From positions 1 through 64,000 of IMG/VR virus record IMGVR_UViG_3300018080_008375: DNA of 64,000 nucleotides. The stretch is one strand, 5' to 3'. Both the position numbers and the translations under genes were made by a program. The stretch is from a virus. Below, piece after piece: positions 1,378 through 56,755 of the stretch. Position 1 is the first letter of the stretch. Every line of letters starts with the position of its first letter. The notes under the pieces are model-generated. The model saw nothing but the letters and a program-made list of their open reading frames with translations. It searched no databases and was not told the DNA's origin.

Positions 1378-2202
1378 ATGAAAGAGTTTACGGGTCATCC
1401 AAATGTGTCCAAAGATGAGGCGATTCGTCTTCGAATCGAAGAACGCAGACCTGTATCAGAGATAGTGAAAATTCTTGGAAAACCAAAGAGCACGGTTTAT
1501 CAGTGGCTCAAGGATTACCCCCTATCCGAAACTGAATTGCTTACACGGAAAATTGATGCCGCTAAAAAGCAAGTTCGCGGCCCTAGGAAACTGAAAGGTA
1601 ATCCTTCCAAGTTCTACGCAGCGGTGGAGTTTTCAGATTTAGGGCGCAATAGGAAGGCTAAAGTTGCTGAGGCAGCTGTTTTGTTTAGGCTAGTTCTTCA
1701 TGGTTTTGATGTGTATGGGCGCGTTTTTGACGGTCAGAAAGCGGATTGGGTGGTTGAAGGACAGAAAGTCCAAGTTCGGTTTGCGCGTTGGTGTAAGTAT
1801 GGAACTCCGATTGTTAGTTTGCGATGCGGCGGTGGTTCCAGAAATCATAGGGGAAAGCGGCGTTTTGAGGATGGGGAGTTCGATGTGTTGGTGGGTTATG
1901 ATCTATATACAGATACAGCTTTTGTGTGGAGATGGGATGAACTCACACATTTACAGACGGCTGTTTCAGCTTCAGAGGAAGCAGCTGAAGCATGGCATAA
2001 GTTGAGACCCATTAGCCTAGTGAAAGATGCCAATACCACATGTGGCTCGCAAGAAAGGAAAGGCAATGCCGCTATACAAGGTGAAGCTGAAACGGTGCGT
2101 GACGCAGTTTGCGCACGTGACGGTAAGGGCGCACGACAAAGGTCAGGCTATGCTGGTGAACCAGAAGCTCCTGTTTGCTGTACCAACAAAGTGGAGCCAT
2201 GA
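1378..2202 (+). CDS. PD-(D/E)XK homing endonuclease with N-terminal HTH (group I intron-associated PDDEXK_5-like)
   Basis: HTH (SEIVKILGKPKSTVYQWL), then KAKVAEAAV...ADWVV...KVQVR...FDVLVGY; lower GC than neighbours. The tail overlaps the next gene. Confidence 0.7.
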   Translation: MKEFTGHPNVSKDEAIRLRIEERRPVSEIVKILGKPKSTVYQWLKDYPLSETELLTRKIDAAKKQVRGPRKLKGNPSKFYAAVEFSDLGRNRKAKVAEAAVLFRLVLHGFDVYGRVFDGQKADWVVEGQKVQVRFARWCKYGTPIVSLRCGGGSRNHRGKRRFEDGEFDVLVGYDLYTDTAFVWRWDELTHLQTAVSASEEAAEAWHKLRPISLVKDANTTCGSQERKGNAAIQGEAETVRDAVCARDGKGARQRSGYAGEPEAPVCCTNKVEP

Positions 2203-2623: not shown

Positions 2624-3140
2624 GCTGACCAGACCCCGGAAGGAAGAAGCCGAGGTGGTGGTGGAGGCCCATGACAAGAACATGGCGCGCCAGCACGCCC
2701 TCCGGCAGATGCGCGAAGACAAGGTTGAGCCGGAGTGGAAGCCGTGCGACGAGGCAGTCGGAGGGTGTGGTTCAGTGGTCAACATCTCGTCGGTGAGGAA
2801 GAGCGACGAGGCGGGGGAGCCGGACGTGAAGGTTCCGCACCTGCCGCCGAAGGAGTTCGTGATCAGGGTAGGGTACAAGGAATACTACGAGTGCGAGGCC
2901 AACATTCTGGTGAAAGCCGAGAACATCGAAGAGGCGTGGTTGATCGCCAACAGCCTGGAGTACGAGGATCTGGACCGGTACGATTATGATGAGGTCAGGA
3001 GCGAACCGAGCGACTGCGAAGTCTATAATGTCGATCCGCTGCACAAGGACGAGGAAGACGACAAGCTGCAGCCGCTGAAGCCTGGGAAGTGGCAGAAGAC
3101 TTTTGAAAAACTAAGGAAGCGACTGGGAAAGAGGAAGTAA
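2604..3140 (+). CDS. hypothetical protein with repeated 'V.VEA...EA' domains
   Basis: 178-aa ORF with two similar beta-alpha modules. Confidence 0.7.
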   Translation: MPKFKVKLTRPRKEEAEVVVEAHDKNMARQHALRQMREDKVEPEWKPCDEAVGGCGSVVNISSVRKSDEAGEPDVKVPHLPPKEFVIRVGYKEYYECEANILVKAENIEEAWLIANSLEYEDLDRYDYDEVRSEPSDCEVYNVDPLHKDEEDDKLQPLKPGKWQKTFEKLRKRLGKRK

Positions 3141-11121: not shown

Positions 11122-11196
11122 GGCCCTGTAGCTCAGCCCGAACAGAGCAGACGGTTCCTACCCGTCAGGTCGTAGGTTTAAATCCTACCAGGGTCA
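11122..11196 (+). tRNA. tRNA-Arg(CCT)
   Basis: Acceptor GGCCCTG/CAGGGTC; anticodon arm GACGG-TTCCTAC-CCGTC. Confidence 0.87.
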
Positions 11197-11231
11197 CTTC
11201 AGGCGGATTTTTTATACGGCGCTGTTGATTG

Positions 11232-12300: not shown

Positions 12301-12380
12301 ACCCCCGTAGTCGGTCTCGGCTACGGACCGAGCAGCCGTAATAGGAGCTGAAAATGCAGGTTCGAGTCCTGCCGGGGGTG
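12301..12380 (+). tRNA. D-armless tRNA-Arg(ACG) with an extra arm 3' of the anticodon
   Basis: Acceptor ACCCCCG/CGGGGGT; only 8 nt (TAGTCGGT) before CTCGG-CTACGGA-CCGAG; then CAGC-CGTAATAGGA-GCTG; T arm GCAGG-TTCGAGT-CCTGC. Confidence 0.75.
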
Positions 12381-20029: not shown

Positions 20030-20176
20030 TGGACCGTAGCCTAATGACGACTGCCGAACGTCAGTCGGGGCATACACCGGCTGCCTAGTAGCTGAGCGTC
20101 ACCTCCGGGGCACCGGGGGCTTGAGAGGGCGACTTCTCTACGAAGGAAGATGCGGGTGCGAATCCCGCCGGTCCAG
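20030..20176 (+). ncRNA. tRNA-like RNA with an ~80-nt structured insertion in the D loop; best anticodon reading ACG
   Basis: Acceptor TGGACCG/CGGTCCA with G73; TAGCCTAA...GGGC D stem; CTTCT-CTACGAA-GGAAG; T arm GCGGG-TGCGAAT-CCCGC. Confidence 0.65.
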
Positions 20177-26503: not shown

Positions 26504-26797
26504 ATGAATGTGTTTCGATGGCTGGTTGAGAGAATCAGGGGCGGCAGAGTCGAAAGCGACGAGCAGGACAAGCTCGAGCAAGTCTTTTCCGACGCGATGA
26601 AATATAGGCTGGCGAACAGAAAAGTGGCATCGAACAAAGCTCTCGTCAGGTTCCTTGAAAGCGAGTTTGTGTCGCCGTCTTTCGTCCCGGAGCTTGTCAG
26701 AATGATAGGCGAGGATGGTTTGACATTCTCTGAGCGCGAGCTTATAACGCGCGTGACGGACCGTATCGCCCGCGCTTGGAAAACTGAGCCACGGTAG
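26504..26797 (+). CDS. hypothetical protein
   Basis: ORF whose stop lies inside the tRNA 5' end. Confidence 0.55.
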   Translation: MNVFRWLVERIRGGRVESDEQDKLEQVFSDAMKYRLANRKVASNKALVRFLESEFVSPSFVPELVRMIGEDGLTFSERELITRVTDRIARAWKTEPR

Positions 26798-26862
26798 CCC
26801 AATCGGCAGGAGGCACGGGTCTTAGGCACCTGACAGTGTGAGTTCGAATCTCACCCGTGGTA
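26788..26862 (+). tRNA. tRNA-Leu(TAG), short variable loop
   Basis: Acceptor GCCACGG/CCGTGGT; anticodon arm CGGGT-CTTAGGC-ACCTG. Confidence 0.88.
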
Positions 26863-26865
26863 TAC

Positions 26866-26942
26866 GCCGCCGTAGCCCAATTTGGTAGAGGCGCTAGTTT
26901 CAAAAACTAGGACTGATGAAGGTTCGAATCCTTCCGGCGGCA
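26866..26942 (+). tRNA. tRNA-Leu(CAA), short variable loop
   Basis: Acceptor GCCGCCG/CGGCGGC; anticodon arm CTAGT-TTCAAAA-ACTAG. Confidence 0.9.
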
Positions 26943-29293: not shown

Positions 29294-29367
29294 GCTGCGG
29301 TAGCCCAACCGGCAGAGGCACTAGCCCGAGGCGCTAGCCAGTGAGGGTTCGAATCCCTCCCGCAGCA
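29294..29367 (+). tRNA. tRNA-Leu(GAG), C33, short variable loop
   Basis: Acceptor GCTGCGG/CCGCAGC; anticodon arm CTAGC-CCGAGGC-GCTAG. Confidence 0.87.
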
Positions 29368-29396
29368 CACCAGATCAAAGTAAGGCTGTGTACAAG

Positions 29397-34614: not shown

Positions 34615-34960
34615 GGGGGTGAATTTGGTTTCGACGTGTACGATTGCGGCATAGGCTGCAGGCAGGAGGGTCGCTGGGACCTCCCTAATCCAACAGCGAA
34701 AAGCAAACGCGAACGAACAGTTTGCAATGGCCGCATAGGCCCGCCGGAGATGCTGCCCAGCCTGTCGGCGGCTTCTCCGGTGCGATGATGGCGGGCTAGC
34801 TGACGGAGGATCGTAGCCTCTCCAGAAGCGAAGCAACAGGCTGCGGACATCCCGGACAGAACCTGCCGGTGGGTGCTGCCTGGATGTATAAAACATCGGA
34901 CAAGCCTGTAGACGCCATGCCAAGGCGTGTGCGGACGGGGTTTCGATACCCCCACCTCCA
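34615..34960 (+). ncRNA. ssrA: tmRNA
   Basis: 5' GGGGGTGAATTTGGTTTCGAC; 3' GACGGGGTTTCGATACCCCCACCTCCA; tag ORF (AN)ANEQFAMAA-TAG. Confidence 0.93.
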
Positions 34961-34972
34961 CAAGTGATTGAT

Positions 34973-37244: not shown

Positions 37245-37318
37245 GGCTCCGTGTGCTAACTGGCATAGCATCTCGATTTAAAATCGAGCGTTTGGGGGTT
37301 CGAATCCCTCCGGGGCCA
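37245..37318 (+). tRNA. tRNA-Leu(TAA), short variable loop
   Basis: Acceptor GGCTCCG/CGGGGCC; anticodon arm CTCGA-TTTAAAA-TCGAG. Confidence 0.85.
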
Positions 37319-39124: not shown

Positions 39125-39205
39125 GGAGGGTGCCGCCAAGGTGGCAACGCCGGCTTGAACCCGGTGGGGGCTTGGTCGCTCGGGGTTCGATTCCTCCACC
39201 CTCCG
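39125..39205 (+). tRNA. tRNA-Ser(TGA)
   Basis: Acceptor GGAGGGT/ACCCTCC with G73; anticodon arm GCCGG-CTTGAAC-CCGGT; variable arm present. Confidence 0.83.
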
Positions 39206-39393
39206 CCCGAGGAGAAAGACATGAAGGAAGCCAGATGCCCCGTGTGCGGGAGAACATGGGAGCTGTCCGTCCGCTCCAAAGACGACAAGCTCCCCCAATG
39301 CGGGTGTTTTGACCTGATGTCGGGCGTATGCTGGACATGCTGTCTCCTACACAGCATGTCATGTCCCGCAGAGGCATCCGAAAGGGAAGAACA

Positions 39394-43831: not shown

Positions 43832-44365
43832 ATGGAAGTTCACTGGATAGCCGCTATTTCCGCCATCTTGCCCATGGCGTTTCTGCAGAGCGTCATACAC
43901 CAGCTGTCGCACGGACTGGCAATGCGGATTGGATGGAAGTGGGGGTTTAAAATACATCCGCTCCCATCCAAGGGGGCGTCTGGCGTTGTATGGCCGCATG
44001 TGACATACAGGATGTGTAGTAAATCGTGCGATCTGGACATGTTCGGAAAGGCTATCGCATCTATTGCGCCAAAAATAGCGAATGTCGTCTTGGTCATGGC
44101 ATCTGGCATTGCCATAACTCAGTTGCTTAATCCAACGCTTCTGACCCTTCTGCTCATGTTCGCCTTGGCGAACACAGTCGACTTCATGTCTGCGTTGTCA
44201 ATATTTCGCAAAAGCGGCACTTCGGACATATGGAGGTTTTCCAACTACACCGGAATCGAAACCAGTCATGTAAGATGGTTCGTGGCTGCAATTTCATTTT
44301 TGCTGCTGCTGCTAGTTGTCGTGTCTTTTTTCGGTCGGGTGCTTCCACAGACGGGAATATTATGA
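43832..44365 (+). CDS. multi-TM protein, degenerate M50-like (HQLSH)
   Basis: Hydrophobic helices; HExxH with E->Q. Confidence 0.55.
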   Translation: MEVHWIAAISAILPMAFLQSVIHQLSHGLAMRIGWKWGFKIHPLPSKGASGVVWPHVTYRMCSKSCDLDMFGKAIASIAPKIANVVLVMASGIAITQLLNPTLLTLLLMFALANTVDFMSALSIFRKSGTSDIWRFSNYTGIETSHVRWFVAAISFLLLLLVVVSFFGRVLPQTGIL

Positions 44366-45471
44366 ATCGCATCATTAGGTCGAGAGTGCGCGGCGCCATT
44401 GTCGGAACGGCGATAGGCGATGCGCTCGGGATGCCCGCGGAGGGCATGACGCCACAAGCCATAGCCCAGATGTACGGTCGCCTTCGTTCTTTTGCGAATC
44501 CTAAAGGGGGGACCTGGGCGCATACACATCATCAGCTTGGGCGAGGGCAGTGGACGGACGACACGCAGCTTATGCTCGCCATTGGCGAATCGCTTTTGGC
44601 AAAGAAGCATGTCGATTTCCGGGACATCGCGGACAGGCATATATCCGCGATGGCGGAAAAGCGCGGATGGGGCGGATCGACGGTCACCGGCGTTTCCAAG
44701 ATACGCGCCGGAGTGAATTGGTGGAACTCCGCCAAGCCGGAAGGCGCAGGCAACGGAACGCCCATGAAGATTGCGGCTGTCGGAGCGGTTGCCGGATTAG
44801 GTTTCCTCAAGCCGTTTGACATGGCGTCGACGGTGATCAACATTTCTCGCATGACGCACGGCGACCCGCGGTCTGCGATAGCCGGCATCATCCAGGCTGA
44901 AGCCATCGCCATTGCAATCAAGGGAGGACCAGCGGCCCTCCGCTTGTATCTTGCCCAAGCCGATCAGAGAGCCGAAAGCTGGGAGCGCTGCGTCGGCTCG
45001 CAGGCTCCGCTTCTCAGCGCCAATATGTCTGCCGGTCAGAGTATCATCATGCGCGGCGGCGATCTTGAAAACCTTAGGTCCGCGCTGCGAGCCGGATGCT
45101 TCGTGGTGCAGTCGTTCCCATTCACAATTTCGGCCGTTCTCCTGATGTTCGACCTGCCGCCCGACGAATGCCTGTCCAGGATCGTCGAGCAGGGGGGCGA
45201 TACCGACACTACCGGCGCCATGGCTGGCGCGGTGCTTGGGGCGGCGCATGGCATGGCGTCGTTCCCGGCGCGGCTCAGGCGCGGACTTGAGGGCTATAAA
45301 AGGCTTATTGCTCTTGCTGACGGACTGTGCGCGATGACGGACATGTCGGAGCGTCCATGCGTAAGCGGGAAGTCGTTTTCCAGACCAAAGATTTCCTTTT
45401 CGCGCGGCAACGAAAAGCCAAAGACCTGCCAGCCTTTGGCTGACCTGGCGTTGTCAGCGGAGGGGATGTGA
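44362..45471 (+). CDS. ADP-ribosylglycohydrolase
   Basis: GTAIGDALG, WTDDTQ, GNGTPM, THGDP and GGDTDTTGAMAG. Confidence 0.92.
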   Translation: MNRIIRSRVRGAIVGTAIGDALGMPAEGMTPQAIAQMYGRLRSFANPKGGTWAHTHHQLGRGQWTDDTQLMLAIGESLLAKKHVDFRDIADRHISAMAEKRGWGGSTVTGVSKIRAGVNWWNSAKPEGAGNGTPMKIAAVGAVAGLGFLKPFDMASTVINISRMTHGDPRSAIAGIIQAEAIAIAIKGGPAALRLYLAQADQRAESWERCVGSQAPLLSANMSAGQSIIMRGGDLENLRSALRAGCFVVQSFPFTISAVLLMFDLPPDECLSRIVEQGGDTDTTGAMAGAVLGAAHGMASFPARLRRGLEGYKRLIALADGLCAMTDMSERPCVSGKSFSRPKISFSRGNEKPKTCQPLADLALSAEGM

Positions 45472-48512: not shown

Positions 48513-48902
48513 ATGGGATATGTTCAGTACATCATAGTCCGCAAGGACCTGGTTACGGAGATGGGAATTGGAAAGACGGCCGCCCAGGTAGCCCATGCGT
48601 CGTTGGGCGCGATCCTGGACAAGGGGAAGCTGGTTGACGACCCCGCAGTGCGCGGGTGGCTGACCGGAGCTTTCACCAAACTGGTGGTGTACGCCAAGAC
48701 CAGGCAGAAGCTCTTGAATCTTATAGGGAAATGCCGTGAAGCAGAACTCCGTGTTAAGCCGATTTACGATGCGTGCCGCACCAAGTTGGAACCGGAGGAG
48801 CCTGACGGCACCACGCTGACTTGCGTGGGGCTGTCTCCAGTGCGCGCCGATGAGGTGCCAAAGTTTCTCAAAAAGCTCAGGTTACTGGATGGTGAAAAAT
48901 GA
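48513..48902 (+). CDS. peptidyl-tRNA hydrolase Pth2 (archaeal/eukaryotic type)
   Basis: QYIIVRKDL..MGIGKTAAQVAHAS, KLVV, DACRT and T.TCVG. Confidence 0.88.
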   Translation: MGYVQYIIVRKDLVTEMGIGKTAAQVAHASLGAILDKGKLVDDPAVRGWLTGAFTKLVVYAKTRQKLLNLIGKCREAELRVKPIYDACRTKLEPEEPDGTTLTCVGLSPVRADEVPKFLKKLRLLDGEK

Positions 48903-49564
48903 ATGACAGCGAAAGACCAAGGTGGGACGACACATTTTTGAACATTGCGAGGGAGATTGCCAGGAGGTCCAAGGACCCGTCCACCAAAGTTGGATGCGTC
49001 ATTGTCGGTCCGGACAATGAGGTCCGCTCAGTCGGGTACAACTGTTTTCCCAGAGGCATTCGCGACAGTGAGTCAAGGCTTAACGACAGAAGGGAAAAGC
49101 TCCTCTTTGTTGAGCATTCCGAAAGAAACGCCGTGTACAATGCTGCTAGGGCGGGCATTTCTCTAAAGGGCTGTAGGATATACCTTCCTTGGCTTCCGTG
49201 TTCCGACTGTGCCAGGGCTATAATACAGTCCGGAATAGTAGAGGTTGTTACTGACAATCCCAATGTGCCAGCCAGGTGGCGCAGGGATTTTGCCGTATCG
49301 CTGACGATGTTACATGAGGCTGGCGTGCTGATCAGACGGCCCGGAGGCCGGCCTGTAAATATCTGCGCAGTTATGGGGCGAGCATGGGTAGGCAAAACTA
49401 TAAAAACGCGCGATGGAGAAAAGCGTACGATCAAGTATGTTTATTTTAACGCTAGTGGCGAGATTATTGTGTCGTTCAAAGAAGTTGCCCTGCTTGAAAC
49501 AGCCAGGTCTTTCGCCGACGTCGAGCGGCGCATTGTCGAACCGGAGGCGGCTATTGTCCCTTGA
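48899..49564 (+). CDS. dCMP deaminase with C-terminal extension
   Basis: RSKDPSTKVG, HSERNA and PCSDCARAIIQSGI. Confidence 0.9.
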   Translation: MNDSERPRWDDTFLNIAREIARRSKDPSTKVGCVIVGPDNEVRSVGYNCFPRGIRDSESRLNDRREKLLFVEHSERNAVYNAARAGISLKGCRIYLPWLPCSDCARAIIQSGIVEVVTDNPNVPARWRRDFAVSLTMLHEAGVLIRRPGGRPVNICAVMGRAWVGKTIKTRDGEKRTIKYVYFNASGEIIVSFKEVALLETARSFADVERRIVEPEAAIVP

Positions 49565-54250: not shown

Positions 54251-54859
54251 ATGATTAAGATCTACACCTTGGATGGTCCTCTGAATGTTGACAGGACCGA
54301 CGAGCTCATAAAGATGCTTGAGAGCGTGCGTTTCCATCCTGAGATGGGAAAGTCACTGGACCATGCCCTCTCCGTACAGAGGGTGGTGTTCTACCTGAAG
54401 AATCCGGCCATGTGGTGGCGCGACCAAGGGGTCGGAATACTGGAGCGCAGGCTTGCCGGCGCAAGGAACCATGTGGGCGATCTTCTTGAGCACGAGGACA
54501 TGAGGGACAGCATATTCTACGGGCGGCTCCGGAATGCGCTAAAAGCGACCGCCGACCTGCTGCGGAATCCCGCCCCCAGGGCATGGGACACGTCCTCGGA
54601 CAGCGATGTGCTGAGATGCCCGCTATGCCTCGCGAGAGTGCCGGGCTGTAACCCTTGGAGGACGGACAAGGACACCGTCGAACCCATGAACGCCTTCGCC
54701 GTTCATGCGGACAGCATCTACAGCTGCGGCGTCGCTTACCAGTGTCCCGGATGCCATGCCATGCATTCGGCGGTCAACATGGATGGCAAGCCGCCGGCAA
54801 AGACCTACAAGCCGGGCGAGAAGCGCGACGAGGTTGTGCTGATGCCAGTGGAAGGGTGA
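54251..54859 (+). CDS. hypothetical Zn-binding protein
   Basis: CPLC...CPGC. Confidence 0.6.
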   Translation: MIKIYTLDGPLNVDRTDELIKMLESVRFHPEMGKSLDHALSVQRVVFYLKNPAMWWRDQGVGILERRLAGARNHVGDLLEHEDMRDSIFYGRLRNALKATADLLRNPAPRAWDTSSDSDVLRCPLCLARVPGCNPWRTDKDTVEPMNAFAVHADSIYSCGVAYQCPGCHAMHSAVNMDGKPPAKTYKPGEKRDEVVLMPVEG

Positions 54860-54862
54860 ATT

Positions 54863-55471
54863 ATGGCACGCGAAAAACACACGAAATGCGACAGGTGCGA
54901 CAGGTGCGGGTTCGGCCTGGAGGACGGTCGGTCCGTACAGTGGTTCAGTAAGGACGGCTCGCTGATAGAGACGGTGTGCGAGGAGTGCGATTCGGACGAG
55001 AGGAAGCTGGAGTACCGCAAGACCGGTCGCATCACCAGCAGGCTGCATTTGGACGCCGTCGTAAGGCGCGGCATAACCAGGGAAAACTGCCGCATCGACA
55101 GGACTTACCAGGCTGTGCTGGACGACATGGAGAAGGTTGGGGAGGTCGCCAAAGGCTTCAACAAGAATGTGTGGCTGTCCGGCCTGCGGAAAAGGTACAT
55201 GGATGCCAAGGAGAACGGGCACAGCGCCAAGGCGGGCACCACGAAGTTCATGGTGTTCTGTATGGCTGGCAGGATACTGCTGACATTCGAGCGCGAGGGA
55301 GGGGACTACCTGACGCTCATAACGTCCGACGAGGAGCCGCCGCGCGGTCTGGGGGTGCAGGGCATCGGATGCCGCGAGTATGTTGCCAGGGACATGATTT
55401 GTGATGTGTCCGTGGCATGGGAGGTTGGAAAGTTGGATTTTAAGCCTGATTCTGAGGTCAGTCTTATCTGA
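54863..55471 (+). CDS. hypothetical protein
   Basis: CDRC...VCEEC. Confidence 0.6.
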   Translation: MAREKHTKCDRCDRCGFGLEDGRSVQWFSKDGSLIETVCEECDSDERKLEYRKTGRITSRLHLDAVVRRGITRENCRIDRTYQAVLDDMEKVGEVAKGFNKNVWLSGLRKRYMDAKENGHSAKAGTTKFMVFCMAGRILLTFEREGGDYLTLITSDEEPPRGLGVQGIGCREYVARDMICDVSVAWEVGKLDFKPDSEVSLI

Positions 55472-55785
55472 TGGGCAAATCCTGGGCGGATGCCGCCATT
55501 GATAAACTGGCTGGCGGCGAATCGGCGGATATCAGGCCGCATGGTAATTCCATGAAGGGAAAGGTCGAGAGCGGGCAGCAGGTAACGGTATCCCCGTGCG
55601 ACGAGAGCGGGCTGGCTGCCGGCGACATGGTGCTCGTGCGCGTGAAGGGGCGCGTGTACCTTCATCTTGTCAAAGCCGTTCGCGAAGGCAAGGACGGAAA
55701 AAGGAGGTTTCAGATAGGCAACAATTGCGGTGGTATAAACGGCTGGGTTGGAGCCAAGGCGATCTACGGAAAAATGGAGGGATGA
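55471..55785 (+). CDS. S24/S26 peptidase-like protein
   Basis: GNSM...GD.VL...YLHLV...GNN.G.INGW...IYGK. Confidence 0.7.
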   Translation: MGKSWADAAIDKLAGGESADIRPHGNSMKGKVESGQQVTVSPCDESGLAAGDMVLVRVKGRVYLHLVKAVREGKDGKRRFQIGNNCGGINGWVGAKAIYGKMEG

Positions 55786-55862
55786 TCCATAGGGGTTGGT
55801 GCCGGATACGGTCCGGGAGCCGCTGCGGCGGTTCAGGGGTTCGATTCCCCTTCCCTCCGCCA
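55776..55862 (+). tRNA. Ser-type tRNA body carrying an ACG anticodon, CCA encoded
   Basis: Acceptor GGAGGGA/TCCCTCC-GCCA; CCGGA-TACGG-TCCGG; long arm GAGCCGC/GCGGTTC; T arm AGGGG-TTCGATT-CCCCT. Confidence 0.75.
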
Positions 55863-55871
55863 ATCGGGTCA

Positions 55872-56221
55872 TGATGGTCCGAAAAATGGCCCAAAAGGAA
55901 ACAATAATGCCGTACACGGAAAGGATCAAGAAGATAGCTCGGGCGGCGTACCACGGTCTTATTGACAAGGAGTGCGGTCCCGAATGGCTCATCGAATGCA
56001 TGACCGATCGTTATTGGGACGACATGGTACTTTGGAAAGAGAATGGCGTGGATCCCCCGCCTGACAGGCATGAGGCAATGGTGGCGATAGGATGCATGCT
56101 GCGCGACGGAAGGCTTGTCGCGGACGAGGAAGGAATGCTGTGGGCTCCGGCCTACTATCCCAACACTGTGGCGGATATCCGCAAGCGCAAGAGGCGCCCG
56201 AGGCGCAAATTTGAATGGTGA
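55872..56221 (+). CDS. hypothetical protein
   Basis: ORF following the tRNA; start uncertain. Confidence 0.5.
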
Positions 56222-56224
56222 TTC

Positions 56225-56755
56225 ATGGAATGGTTTACTTCTGATACGCATTTCGGTGCTCAGCGTACGCTGGAGCTGAGCAGGCGACCCTTCGATTCCG
56301 TGGCGTGCATGGACTGGACCATCGTGCGGAACTGGAACAGTATTGTGGGGCGCTCGGATACGGTCTATCATCTCGGAGATTTTGGCAACTGGTCCATGCT
56401 GGGCTATCTCAACGGCAACATTATCCTTCTTCCAGGAAATTATGACGAGCCGATAGACGTATACCGGTCCGGAGTCAGGACGATCAAGAGCGGTCATGTC
56501 CAGTGGTTCAACGACGTGCGGCTCAAGATGGTGCATGATCCGCTGTCGGCCAAAAAGAGTCTGCCGGAGCAGTCGACGATGGATGAGGACCCGTTCTATC
56601 TGTTCGGTCACATACACAAGCTGCAAATGGTGAAGGAGAACGGTCTCAACGTGGGCGTGGACTGTCACAACTTCTGCCCCATAGACTTGGATACGGTACT
56701 GTTTTATCGCAATGCCATCATCAATCATTACGACGAGAACGTGTTTTGCCCATGA
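56225..56755 (+). CDS. calcineurin-like metallophosphoesterase
   Basis: FTSDTHFG, HLGDF, GNYD, GHIH and NVGVD. Confidence 0.9.
   Translation: MEWFTSDTHFGAQRTLELSRRPFDSVACMDWTIVRNWNSIVGRSDTVYHLGDFGNWSMLGYLNGNIILLPGNYDEPIDVYRSGVRTIKSGHVQWFNDVRLKMVHDPLSAKKSLPEQSTMDEDPFYLFGHIHKLQMVKENGLNVGVDCHNFCPIDLDTVLFYRNAIINHYDENVFCP

Follow-up and report, generated by a model that had tools for sequence, protein, structure and literature searches.

A serine-type tRNA body joined to an arginine ACG anticodon in a phage genome: a candidate allo-tRNA-like gene

Introduction

Allo-tRNAs combine the identity marks of tRNA-Ser (a long variable arm and G73 or U73) with a non-serine anticodon, the arginine anticodon GCG being among the commonest (Mukai et al. 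2017, NAR 45:2776, PMC5389517). Those with non-serine anticodons have been described from Clostridia, Proteobacteria and Acidobacteria (PMC5389517; review PMC7609411), and serine-identity allo-tRNAs with Arg (GCG) and other anticodons differ in their effects, some inserting serine in Escherichia coli and proving toxic, others being inactive (PMC5389517, PMC7609411). Seryl-tRNA synthetase (SerRS) disregards the anticodon and reads the discriminator base G73, acceptor pairs and the long variable arm (PMC7609411, PMC5389517). Serine tRNAs with an (8/4) architecture have also been reported in phage tRNA clusters (PMC5389517), and changes in the anticodon loop have been proposed to let phage tRNAs evade anticodon nucleases, the Arg-tRNA-cleaving colicin D among them (van den Berg et al. 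2023, PMC10264068). Here we describe a phage gene that joins a serine-type tRNA body to an arginine (ACG) anticodon. The gene, called the candidate below, is the last tRNA gene of a 64-kb stretch of DNA (the window), positions 1 to 64,000 of the IMG/VR virus record IMGVR_UViG_3300018080_008375.

Natural tRNAs with an identity that contradicts their anticodon are rare, and they bear on the evolution of the genetic code, on deliberate mistranslation and on the choice of chassis for genetic-code engineering. Nematode nev-tRNAs and the Streptomyces tRNA-ProX/ProRSx system are further cases in which charging identity is at odds with the anticodon, with regulated or low-level mistranslation. For the candidate, our tentative reading, to which we give a probability of roughly 40%, is that of a chimeric tRNA that could be charged with serine: a body of Ser lineage carrying an Arg-type loop (AUACGGU), allo-tRNA-like and probably a poor decoder.

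Results

A complete class II tRNA gene beyond the tRNA array

ARAGORN finds 31 tRNA genes and a transfer-messenger RNA (tmRNA) in the window, every one on the + strand. Thirty of the 31 tRNAs fall within 3.2-39.2 kb and the candidate stands alone at 55776-55862; a preliminary description of this DNA had placed it 16 kb from the array, in agreement with the end of the final array tRNA at 39208. The same description had listed an acceptor stem GGAGGGA/TCCCTCC, G73, a long paired variable arm and an encoded CCA, each of which is present in the sequence (Table 1), and it had correctly drawn the anticodon arm as CCGGA-TACGG-TCCGG with ACG centred in a loop of 5 or 7 nt. A CCA end is encoded in only two of the phage's 31 tRNAs, the candidate included.

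The reading of the candidate as a serylatable chimera is supported by intact helices, with 7/7 pairs in the acceptor stem, 5/5 in the T stem, up to 7/7 in the variable arm and 4/4 in the anticodon stem, and by a compensatory swap at 7:66 relative to its closest paralogue. Its minimum free energy (MFE) structure is a five-helix cloverleaf (-46.8 kcal/mol, z = -2.45), and 3 of 200 shuffled sequences fold equally well. The general elements of a cloverleaf are all in place, namely four arms, U8, A14, G18G19 and a TTCGATT T loop. The 19 nt between the acceptor and anticodon stems hold U8, A14, G18G19 and G26, and the D loop comprises 8 nt without insertions at 20a or 20b. In its canonical register the candidate has a D stem of 3 bp and a mismatch at 13.22, the usual arrangement in class II tRNAs.

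Against the general tRNA model RF00005, the candidate stays below the gathering score (29 bits) and is not listed in a search of its own genome at E<=10. The phage's two Ser tRNAs likewise go unreported, and the general model is a weak test for the class II tRNAs of this phage. RF01852, the tRNA-Sec model, can accommodate a long variable arm; it scores the candidate at 33.4 bits (E = 3e-6), compared with 39.0 bits for Ser(UGA) and 35.9 bits for the other tRNA-Ser. The candidate is a real gene, equal in quality to the accepted class II tRNAs of the phage.

Several other readings of the RNA were rejected. A tmRNA joins a tRNA-like domain to a tag reading frame and pseudoknots; the tmRNA model, the candidate's best cmscan hit in clan CL00001, reaches 19.9 bits (gathering score 47), covers the acceptor and T arm only and skips 265 model positions. 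A tRNA-Sec is recognised by a 13-bp acceptor branch (8/5 in bacteria), a 6-bp D stem and a UCA anticodon, whereas the candidate has a 7/5 branch, ACG, 33.4 bits against a gathering score of 47, and a long D stem that is broken in its metagenomic relative (L143, see below). An 8/4 cloverleaf would need U8.U65 as its eighth acceptor pair, and U65 instead pairs with A49 in a T stem of 5 bp. A pseudo-anticodon in the variable arm was also dismissed, the loop there being a UGCG tetraloop and not one of 7 nt.

The tRNA body is of serine type

Among the tRNAs of the phage, the closest paralogue in pairwise alignment is Ser(UGA), identical at 61 of 87 positions, followed by Ser(CGA). Ser(UGA) and the candidate agree in the T loop, in the anticodon stem (GCCGG...CCGG) and, apart from the compensatory 7:66 swap (A:U in one, U:A in the other), in the acceptor. 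The acceptor pairs G1:C72, G2:C71 and A3:U70 are those of the collected phage and bacterial tRNA-Ser, many of which have the same or nearly the same acceptor as the candidate.

Isotype was further assessed with per-isotype, anticodon-masked profile hidden Markov models built from 661 distinct phage tRNAs gathered in pattern scans (held-out accuracy 99/127). The candidate scores best as Ser (15.3 bits), ahead of Asp (11.4) and Ala (11.3), with Arg outside the top five. Applied to controls, the same profiles assign the phage's Arg(CCU) to Arg with 28.1 bits and its 80-nt ACG gene (12301-12380) to Arg with 15.8 bits, and they place the phage Leu, Thr, Val and Gln tRNAs correctly. Of the 30 nearest neighbours of the candidate, 27 are Ser, in a set of distinct tRNAs from 1351 ARAGORN calls whose manner of collection favours Ser. 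Of 42 phage Arg tRNAs, 41 have A as the base that follows the GG run of the D loop; the candidate has U there, with G at position 20, L143 has C, and both lack A20.

Paralogy with Ser(UGA), masked profiles, nearest neighbours and the missing A20 thus bear out the serine-type body of the preliminary description. Judged from its sequence, the body is Ser-type and clearly not Arg-type, and the candidate is a putative SerRS substrate. The features of a Ser substrate that it possesses are the long paired variable arm, G73 and the G1:C72, G2:C71 and A3:U70 pairs, and those that it lacks are C11:G24, the 20a/20b insertions and an anticodon of the Ser set, NGA or GCU. The D loop of the phage's Ser(UGA) is very short as well. 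Of the Arg determinants, C35 and G36 are present and A20 is absent.

An abnormal anticodon arm

The anticodon arm can adopt two forms, a 5-bp stem with a 5-nt loop or a 4-bp stem with the 7-nt loop AUACGGU. Beneath the 4-bp stem, G at 55801 opposes G at 55817, giving a 27:43 G.G mismatch; the 17-nt arm that includes it is set by homology with Ser(UGA), which has U43. A32 and U38 can pair and so reduce the loop to 5 nt, and the MFE structure adds U33.G37, leaving 3 nt. Among 661 phage tRNAs, 1 combines A32 with U38, and position 32 is a pyrimidine in all 30 other tRNAs of this phage. The phage Arg(ACG) loops sampled follow YUACGRA in 15 of 15 cases, from which AUACGGU departs.

Such an arm is not disqualifying, because E. 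coli tRNA-Ala(GGC) functions with an A32:U38 pair, which weakens ribosome binding. Taken together, the features of the arm point to weak decoding at best.

Conservation in a close relative

No homologue of the candidate turned up when IMG/VR and GTDB genomes were scanned with exact and degenerate patterns. A metagenome scan yielded one relative, L143, a 1563-bp sequence that is 94.4% identical to the window over 1278 bp and in which the tRNA is identical at 86 of 87 positions. An ordinary Ser anticodon in relatives had been named in the preliminary description as the mark of a decayed copy; L143, at 94% identity, keeps ACG. The sole change, G to C at position 20 (55795), falls within the D loop when the arm is drawn in the canonical register; the alternative D stem of 5 bp in the MFE fold would be disrupted by it. 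Mismatches number 71 in 1191 flanking positions against 1 in 87 within the tRNA (binomial p = 0.03), and the downstream spacer has 4 in 44 (Fisher p = 0.04 against the tRNA).

In L143, a 49-amino-acid open reading frame (ORF) with a CxxC...CxxC pattern (127-276) stands between the upstream ORF and the tRNA, and the upstream ORF ends 155 nt before the tRNA. By comparison, the window looks as if it had undergone a recent deletion of ~160 nt between two ATGGA repeats, with loss of the 49-amino-acid ORF up to the first bases of the tRNA; the tRNA itself is untouched by this apparent deletion. These data favour a maintained gene, of shallow evolutionary depth.

More distant relatives were reached through neighbouring and core genes. 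Those found with the phosphoesterase (<=47% amino acid identity; L003-L011) have no tRNA at the corresponding place, and the upstream 202-amino-acid ORF has no relative in IMG/VR. The fragments found with the DNA polymerase (54-57% amino acid identity; L014-L018) contain no tRNA genes and are uninformative on conservation. A phosphoesterase identical to the candidate's neighbour is encoded on a 254.8-kb contig, from the same phage or one nearly identical to it.

CGN codons specify arginine in the phage

In the phosphoesterase gene 360 nt downstream of the candidate, CGT at codon 14 aligns to Arg in 118 of 119 homologues and CGA at codon 21 in all 119. For the DNA polymerase (1128 amino acids), the columns considered were those in agreement among four relatives (54-55% identity): CGC falls on Arg in 10 of 11 columns (on Lys once), CGA on Arg in its single column and CGG likewise on Arg, and none falls on Ser. 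The relatives often have AGA or AGG at those Arg columns. A reassignment of CGU, CGC and CGA to Ser through the candidate would have in its favour only the Ser-type body joined to an ACG anticodon. It is refuted for the two genes tested, in which CGN codons stand at invariant Arg positions, and we regard its overall probability as next to negligible.

With 748 of the ~29,000 codons of a crude ORF set, CGC is among the two most frequent Arg codons of the phage. Conserved Arg sites show no shortage of the codons read by ICG (13 of 28, against 16 of 43 at other sites; p = 0.47), and the phage genes show no sign of codon adaptation to the candidate at these sites. Because CGN means Arg and is unavoided at invariant positions, efficient insertion of Ser at CGN would harm the phage's own enzymes. 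The earlier suggestion that the candidate could insert Ser at CGU or CGN codons therefore emerges weakened or unsupported, given that CGC, CGA and CGT are kept for invariant Arg and that the anticodon arm is abnormal.

AGG and AGA make up 42% of the Arg codons of the phage (751 + 288 of 2464, crude ORF set), which is unusual at a G+C content of 55%, the value for the window. The phage encodes its own tRNA-Arg(CCU) (Table 1).

Discussion

Proposed mechanism and competing explanations

If the candidate is a serylatable chimera, it would be excised from a polycistronic + strand transcript by RNase P and 3' processing, and host SerRS would charge it with serine by way of G73, the acceptor pairs and the long variable arm. 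On the ribosome it could read CGU as Ser, and also CGC and CGA should host TadA convert A34 to inosine. The likeliest activity would be low-level Arg-to-Ser missense insertion in the fashion of allo-tRNAs, and not recoding of phage genes, because the weakened anticodon stem and the pairable A32:U38 should make it a poor decoder. Several observations weigh against this proposal. The margin of the Ser profile is only ~4 bits, and the D arm lacks both the Ser-typical C11:G24 (U11.G24 instead) and the 20a/20b insertion. The G.G 27:43 mismatch, the rare A32:U38 and the non-YUACGRA loop depart from working decoders and argue against efficient decoding. CGC, CGA and CGT encode invariant Arg in the phage and CGN is not avoided, so any misreading must be slight or harmful to the phage; and with a single, very close relative, selection on the anticodon is weakly supported.

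A more radical form of the serylated tRNA can be envisaged, in which a Ser-charged tRNA(ICG) acts as a phage weapon that degrades a CGN-rich host proteome by placing Ser at CGU, CGC and CGA, or as a serylated decoy for a nuclease aimed at tRNA-Arg(ICG). As a weapon it would leave the phage partly shielded by its 42% of AGG/AGA Arg codons and its own tRNA-Arg(CCU). We consider this version, shielding included, very improbable.

It is somewhat unlikely that the gene is a relic without function, descended from a duplicated or imported tRNA gene of Ser type that lost its Ser loop, perhaps in an exchange with a phage ACG tRNA, and now drifting, unused and without useful charging. The abnormal anticodon arm with its very rare A32:U38, the poor scores with general tRNA models, codon use that is unadapted to the candidate and a conservation that ends at a 94%-identical relative are what such a history would leave, and the phage has other malformed tRNA-like genes with ACG loops (12301-12380 and 20030-20176), a sign that rearrangement products accumulate in it. 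Decay is harder to reconcile with helices that are all perfectly paired at only 61/87 identity to the nearest paralogue, one of them through a compensatory 7:66 swap, or with an intact CCA and UNCG-capped variable arm. The tRNA is also more conserved than the L143 flanks (p about 0.03-0.04) and survived the apparent deletion of the adjoining gene, and dead DNA is usually lost fast from phage genomes, which we count against a leftover. The combination of an anticodon arm seemingly unfit for decoding with an otherwise perfectly kept molecule would suit a tRNA look-alike that works off the ribosome, as a decoy or competitor that offers an arginine-type UACGG loop, on a stable scaffold, to a host anticodon nuclease or a tRNA-Arg-binding enzyme, or as a non-ribosomal Ser donor. 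Three different odd genes of the phage all display an ACG loop, the phage carries translation-rescue and tRNA-related genes (tmRNA, Pth2, ADP-ribosylglycohydrolase), and phage tRNAs have been proposed to counter host tRNA nucleases (PMC10264068). We still consider such a role unlikely: the neighbours encode ThyX, phosphoesterases, a NUDIX protein and a C5 methylase, and no nuclease, transferase or partner gene adjoins; an antisense partner RNA was looked for and not found; and a decoy has no need of G73, CCA or a Ser-type acceptor.

The anticodon might, finally, be taken at face value. A true tRNA-Arg would be charged by arginyl-tRNA synthetase (ArgRS) via C35 and G36, with the long variable arm as a phage ornament, and would accord with the ARAGORN label Arg(ACG), with U33, C35, G36 and a purine at 37, with the normal CGN = Arg usage of the phage and with the G73 of many phage Arg tRNAs. 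Long variable regions are no obstacle in themselves: in another phage (L024) the variable region of 89-nt Arg tRNAs is extended, and class I phage tRNAs with variable-arm hairpins exist. Because of both, a long variable region alone is not proof of Ser identity in phages. What makes a true tRNA-Arg quite improbable is the rest of the molecule. The body is unlike Arg, with Arg outside the top five profiles; A20, a feature of L024 and of 41 out of 42 phage Arg tRNAs, is missing, the position varying between G and C in the two copies of the gene; the acceptor, anticodon stem and T arm are those of the phage's Ser(UGA); and an Arg-like body with a CUACGGA loop already exists at 12301-12380.

Genomic setting

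CheckV estimates a completeness of ~25% for the 99.8-kb record that opens with the window, so the whole phage is probably ~400 kb. Neighbouring genes code for an S41 peptidase, ThyX, two unknown proteins and a small protein with a weak S24-peptidase match, and further for an unknown 104-amino-acid protein, two metallophosphoesterases, a NUDIX protein and a C5 DNA methylase; they are closely packed and share the + strand. No sigma-70-like promoter was found within 54800-56300 and no terminator adjoining the candidate, which is presumably cut from a polycistronic transcript. The TGA stop of the upstream 104-amino-acid ORF (55783-55785) coincides with U8-G9-A10 of the tRNA and thus lies inside the candidate. 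RNase P cleavage at the 5' end of the candidate would strip the mRNA of this ORF of its stop codon; the phage has a tmRNA of its own, with the tag ANEQFAMAA.

Pth2, the deaminase, the ADP-ribosylglycohydrolase and the tmRNA (Table 1) are part of the phage's translation toolkit. On this ~25% fragment there is no SerRS-type or ArgRS-type synthetase and no TadA-type deaminase, the sole deaminase being of dCMP/ComEB type.

Table 1. Coordinates of the candidate, its parts and other features discussed (window positions unless another sequence is named)
Feature	Position	Strand	Source or remark
Whole candidate tRNA gene, 87 nt, class II, anticodon ACG, CCA encoded	55776..55862	+	ARAGORN
Acceptor 5' strand GGAGGGA, pairing with TCCCTCC at 55852-55858, 7 Watson-Crick pairs	55776..55782	+	sequence
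D arm, canonical register: A10-U25, U11.G24, C12-G23, 13.22 mismatch, A14, G18G19 in loop	55785..55800	+	
Anticodon arm CCGG-ATACGGT-CCGG	55802..55816	+	stem identical to Ser(UGA) at 39125-39208
Anticodon ACG (position 33 in ARAGORN numbering), preceded by U33, followed by G37	55808..55810	+	ARAGORN
Variable arm, 18 nt, 5 to 7 pairs, C(UGCG)G tetraloop of UNCG type	55817..55834	+	sequence, MFE fold
T arm AGGGG-TTCGATT-CCCCT, 5 Watson-Crick pairs, canonical loop	55835..55851	+	sequence, ARAGORN drawing
Discriminator G73 and genome-encoded CCA	55859..55862	+	sequence
Upstream ORF, 104 amino acids, weak S24-peptidase-like match (Pfam)	55471..55785	+	ORF list
Pth2-type peptidyl-tRNA hydrolase	48513-48902	+	
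dCMP/ComEB-type deaminase, not TadA	48899-49564	+	
ADP-ribosylglycohydrolase	44230-45471	+	
tmRNA	34615-34961	+	ARAGORN
tRNA-Ser(UGA), closest paralogue	39125..39208	+	alignment, ARAGORN, RF01852 39.0 bits
tRNA-Arg(CCU)	11122-11197	+	
tRNA-like gene, 80 nt, perfect acceptor, T arm, CUACGGA anticodon arm, no D arm	12301-12380	+	
tRNA-like gene, CUACGAA loop, ~75 extra nt in D region	20030-20176	+	RF00005 15.4 bits, 3' part only
Asn-type tRNA, ~51 nt inserted in anticodon loop	5618-5740	+	RF00005 47.3 bits
Four short Leu tRNAs	26788-26942, 29294-29368, 37245-37318	+	
Two 89-nt tRNA-Arg genes, UCG and ACG (L024)	1451-1539, 1732-1820		IMGVR_UViG_3300045996_000470
90-nt tRNA-Ser body, CUACGAA loop (ACG) (L350)	2974-3063	-	Candidatus Sulfotelmatobacter metagenome-assembled genome, JBAPPL010000047.1

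Other unusual tRNAs in this phage and elsewhere

The phage holds further tRNA genes of odd build. Its Ser(UGA) fits an 8/4 cloverleaf better than 7/5, with an 8-bp acceptor GGAGGGUG/CACCCUCC and a 4-bp T stem, and ARAGORN shifts the start of this gene by one base. Three odd genes show an ACG loop, the candidate counted. One of the others, the 80-nt gene, has a 20-nt hairpin with a D-loop-like GGA in the variable position and scores 30.9 bits with RF00005, above the cut-off; judged from its sequence, it may be the phage's real tRNA-Arg(ACG), of very unusual architecture. The third has an enlarged D region, and an Asn-type tRNA carries an insertion in its anticodon loop (Table 1). Each of the phage's four Leu tRNAs is short, at 74-77 nt, and lacks a long variable arm; the isotype profiles nonetheless call these bodies Leu at 30-41 bits. 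Short Leu tRNAs also account for ~20 of the 55 distinct Leu tRNAs of the sampled phage loci.

Variable-region extensions are not confined to this phage. The first 734 ARAGORN calls on IMG/VR loci (L019-L137 and L163-L231) include 28 tRNAs of >=80 nt with class I anticodons, of the isotypes Lys, Asn, Cys, Trp, Thr, Met, Glu, Pro, Ile-UAU and Arg (for example, in loci L031, L041, L047 and L104). In many of them the variable region holds a short hairpin capped by GNRA or UNCG, and the discriminator agrees with the anticodon. Such extra hairpins seem to be a recurring design of phage tRNAs, for which we found no published description. The two L024 genes lie 190 nt apart on a 121-kb phage contig, each with ~17 extra nt in the variable region, and the one with ACG has a GGA D loop.

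A bacterial gene also pairs a Ser body with an ACG loop. The gene of L350, from an acidobacterial metagenome-assembled genome, has a GCC...GGC D stem, a long variable arm, G73 and CCA, and its first two acceptor pairs are broken; from these features it could be either a bacterial counterpart of the candidate or a pseudogene. Together with the allo-tRNAs that insert serine in E. coli, it offers a precedent for the chimeric reading.

Significance and comparison with known systems

Standard annotation will label the candidate tRNA-Arg, probably wrongly. Were it charged and used, it would be a case of a virus interfering with the fidelity of decoding; without a role in decoding, it would add one more to a growing set of phage tRNA look-alikes without assigned jobs. 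Should the weapon or serylated-decoy version prove true, the candidate would be the first virus-encoded tRNA with a deliberately mismatched identity.

Compared with the nev-tRNAs and tRNA-ProX, the candidate concerns other organisms and amino acids, and Streptomyces has a dedicated synthetase, of which none was found on this fragment. The phage tRNAs proposed to evade nucleases resemble it in unusual loop flanks (32, 37, 38) and in belonging to an isoacceptor attacked by, for example, colicin D, but they keep a body that matches their anticodon, whereas the body of the candidate is that of another isotype. With bacterial and phage tRNA-Arg(ACG/ICG) it shares UACG in the loop, a purine at 37 and an allowed G73; it differs in the absence of A20, in a loop that is AUACGGU and not YUACGRA, in the long variable arm and in an unlike body. 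The Arg tRNAs of L024 have Arg anticodons (ACG, UCG) and, like the candidate, a long variable region, with ~17 extra nt. Their body is of Arg type, with a GGA D loop and CUACGAA, and the extra region is weakly paired, in contrast to the Ser-type body and strong 7-bp arm of the candidate.

Ordinary class II tRNA-Ser matches the candidate in the body. The GGAG start, G2:C71, A3:U70, G73, the 3-bp D stem with a non-Watson-Crick 13:22, the long paired variable arm, the canonical T loop and the best profile and neighbours are all those of Ser, and the differences lie in the non-Ser anticodon, U11.G24, the short D loop, the G.G at 27:43 and A32:U38. The phage's own Ser(UGA), with its better fit to an 8/4 cloverleaf, resembles the phage (8/4) tRNA-Ser of Mukai et al. 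2017 (PMC5389517).

The described cases of Ser identity with a non-Ser anticodon, the allo-tRNAs, are bacterial and 8/4 or 9/3, and like them the candidate has a long variable arm and G73 with a non-Ser anticodon. Where their 12-bp acceptor branch is 8/4 or 9/3, that of the candidate is 7/5, and where their anticodon stem is lengthened (6 bp), its own is shortened, to 4 bp plus G.G or to 5 bp with a 5-nt loop. Serine-identity tRNAs whose anticodon is not a Ser one are already known as a type; the candidate differs from them in the 7/5 branch, the shortened anticodon stem, the anticodon ACG in place of GCG, and its carriage by a huge phage with a large translation toolkit.

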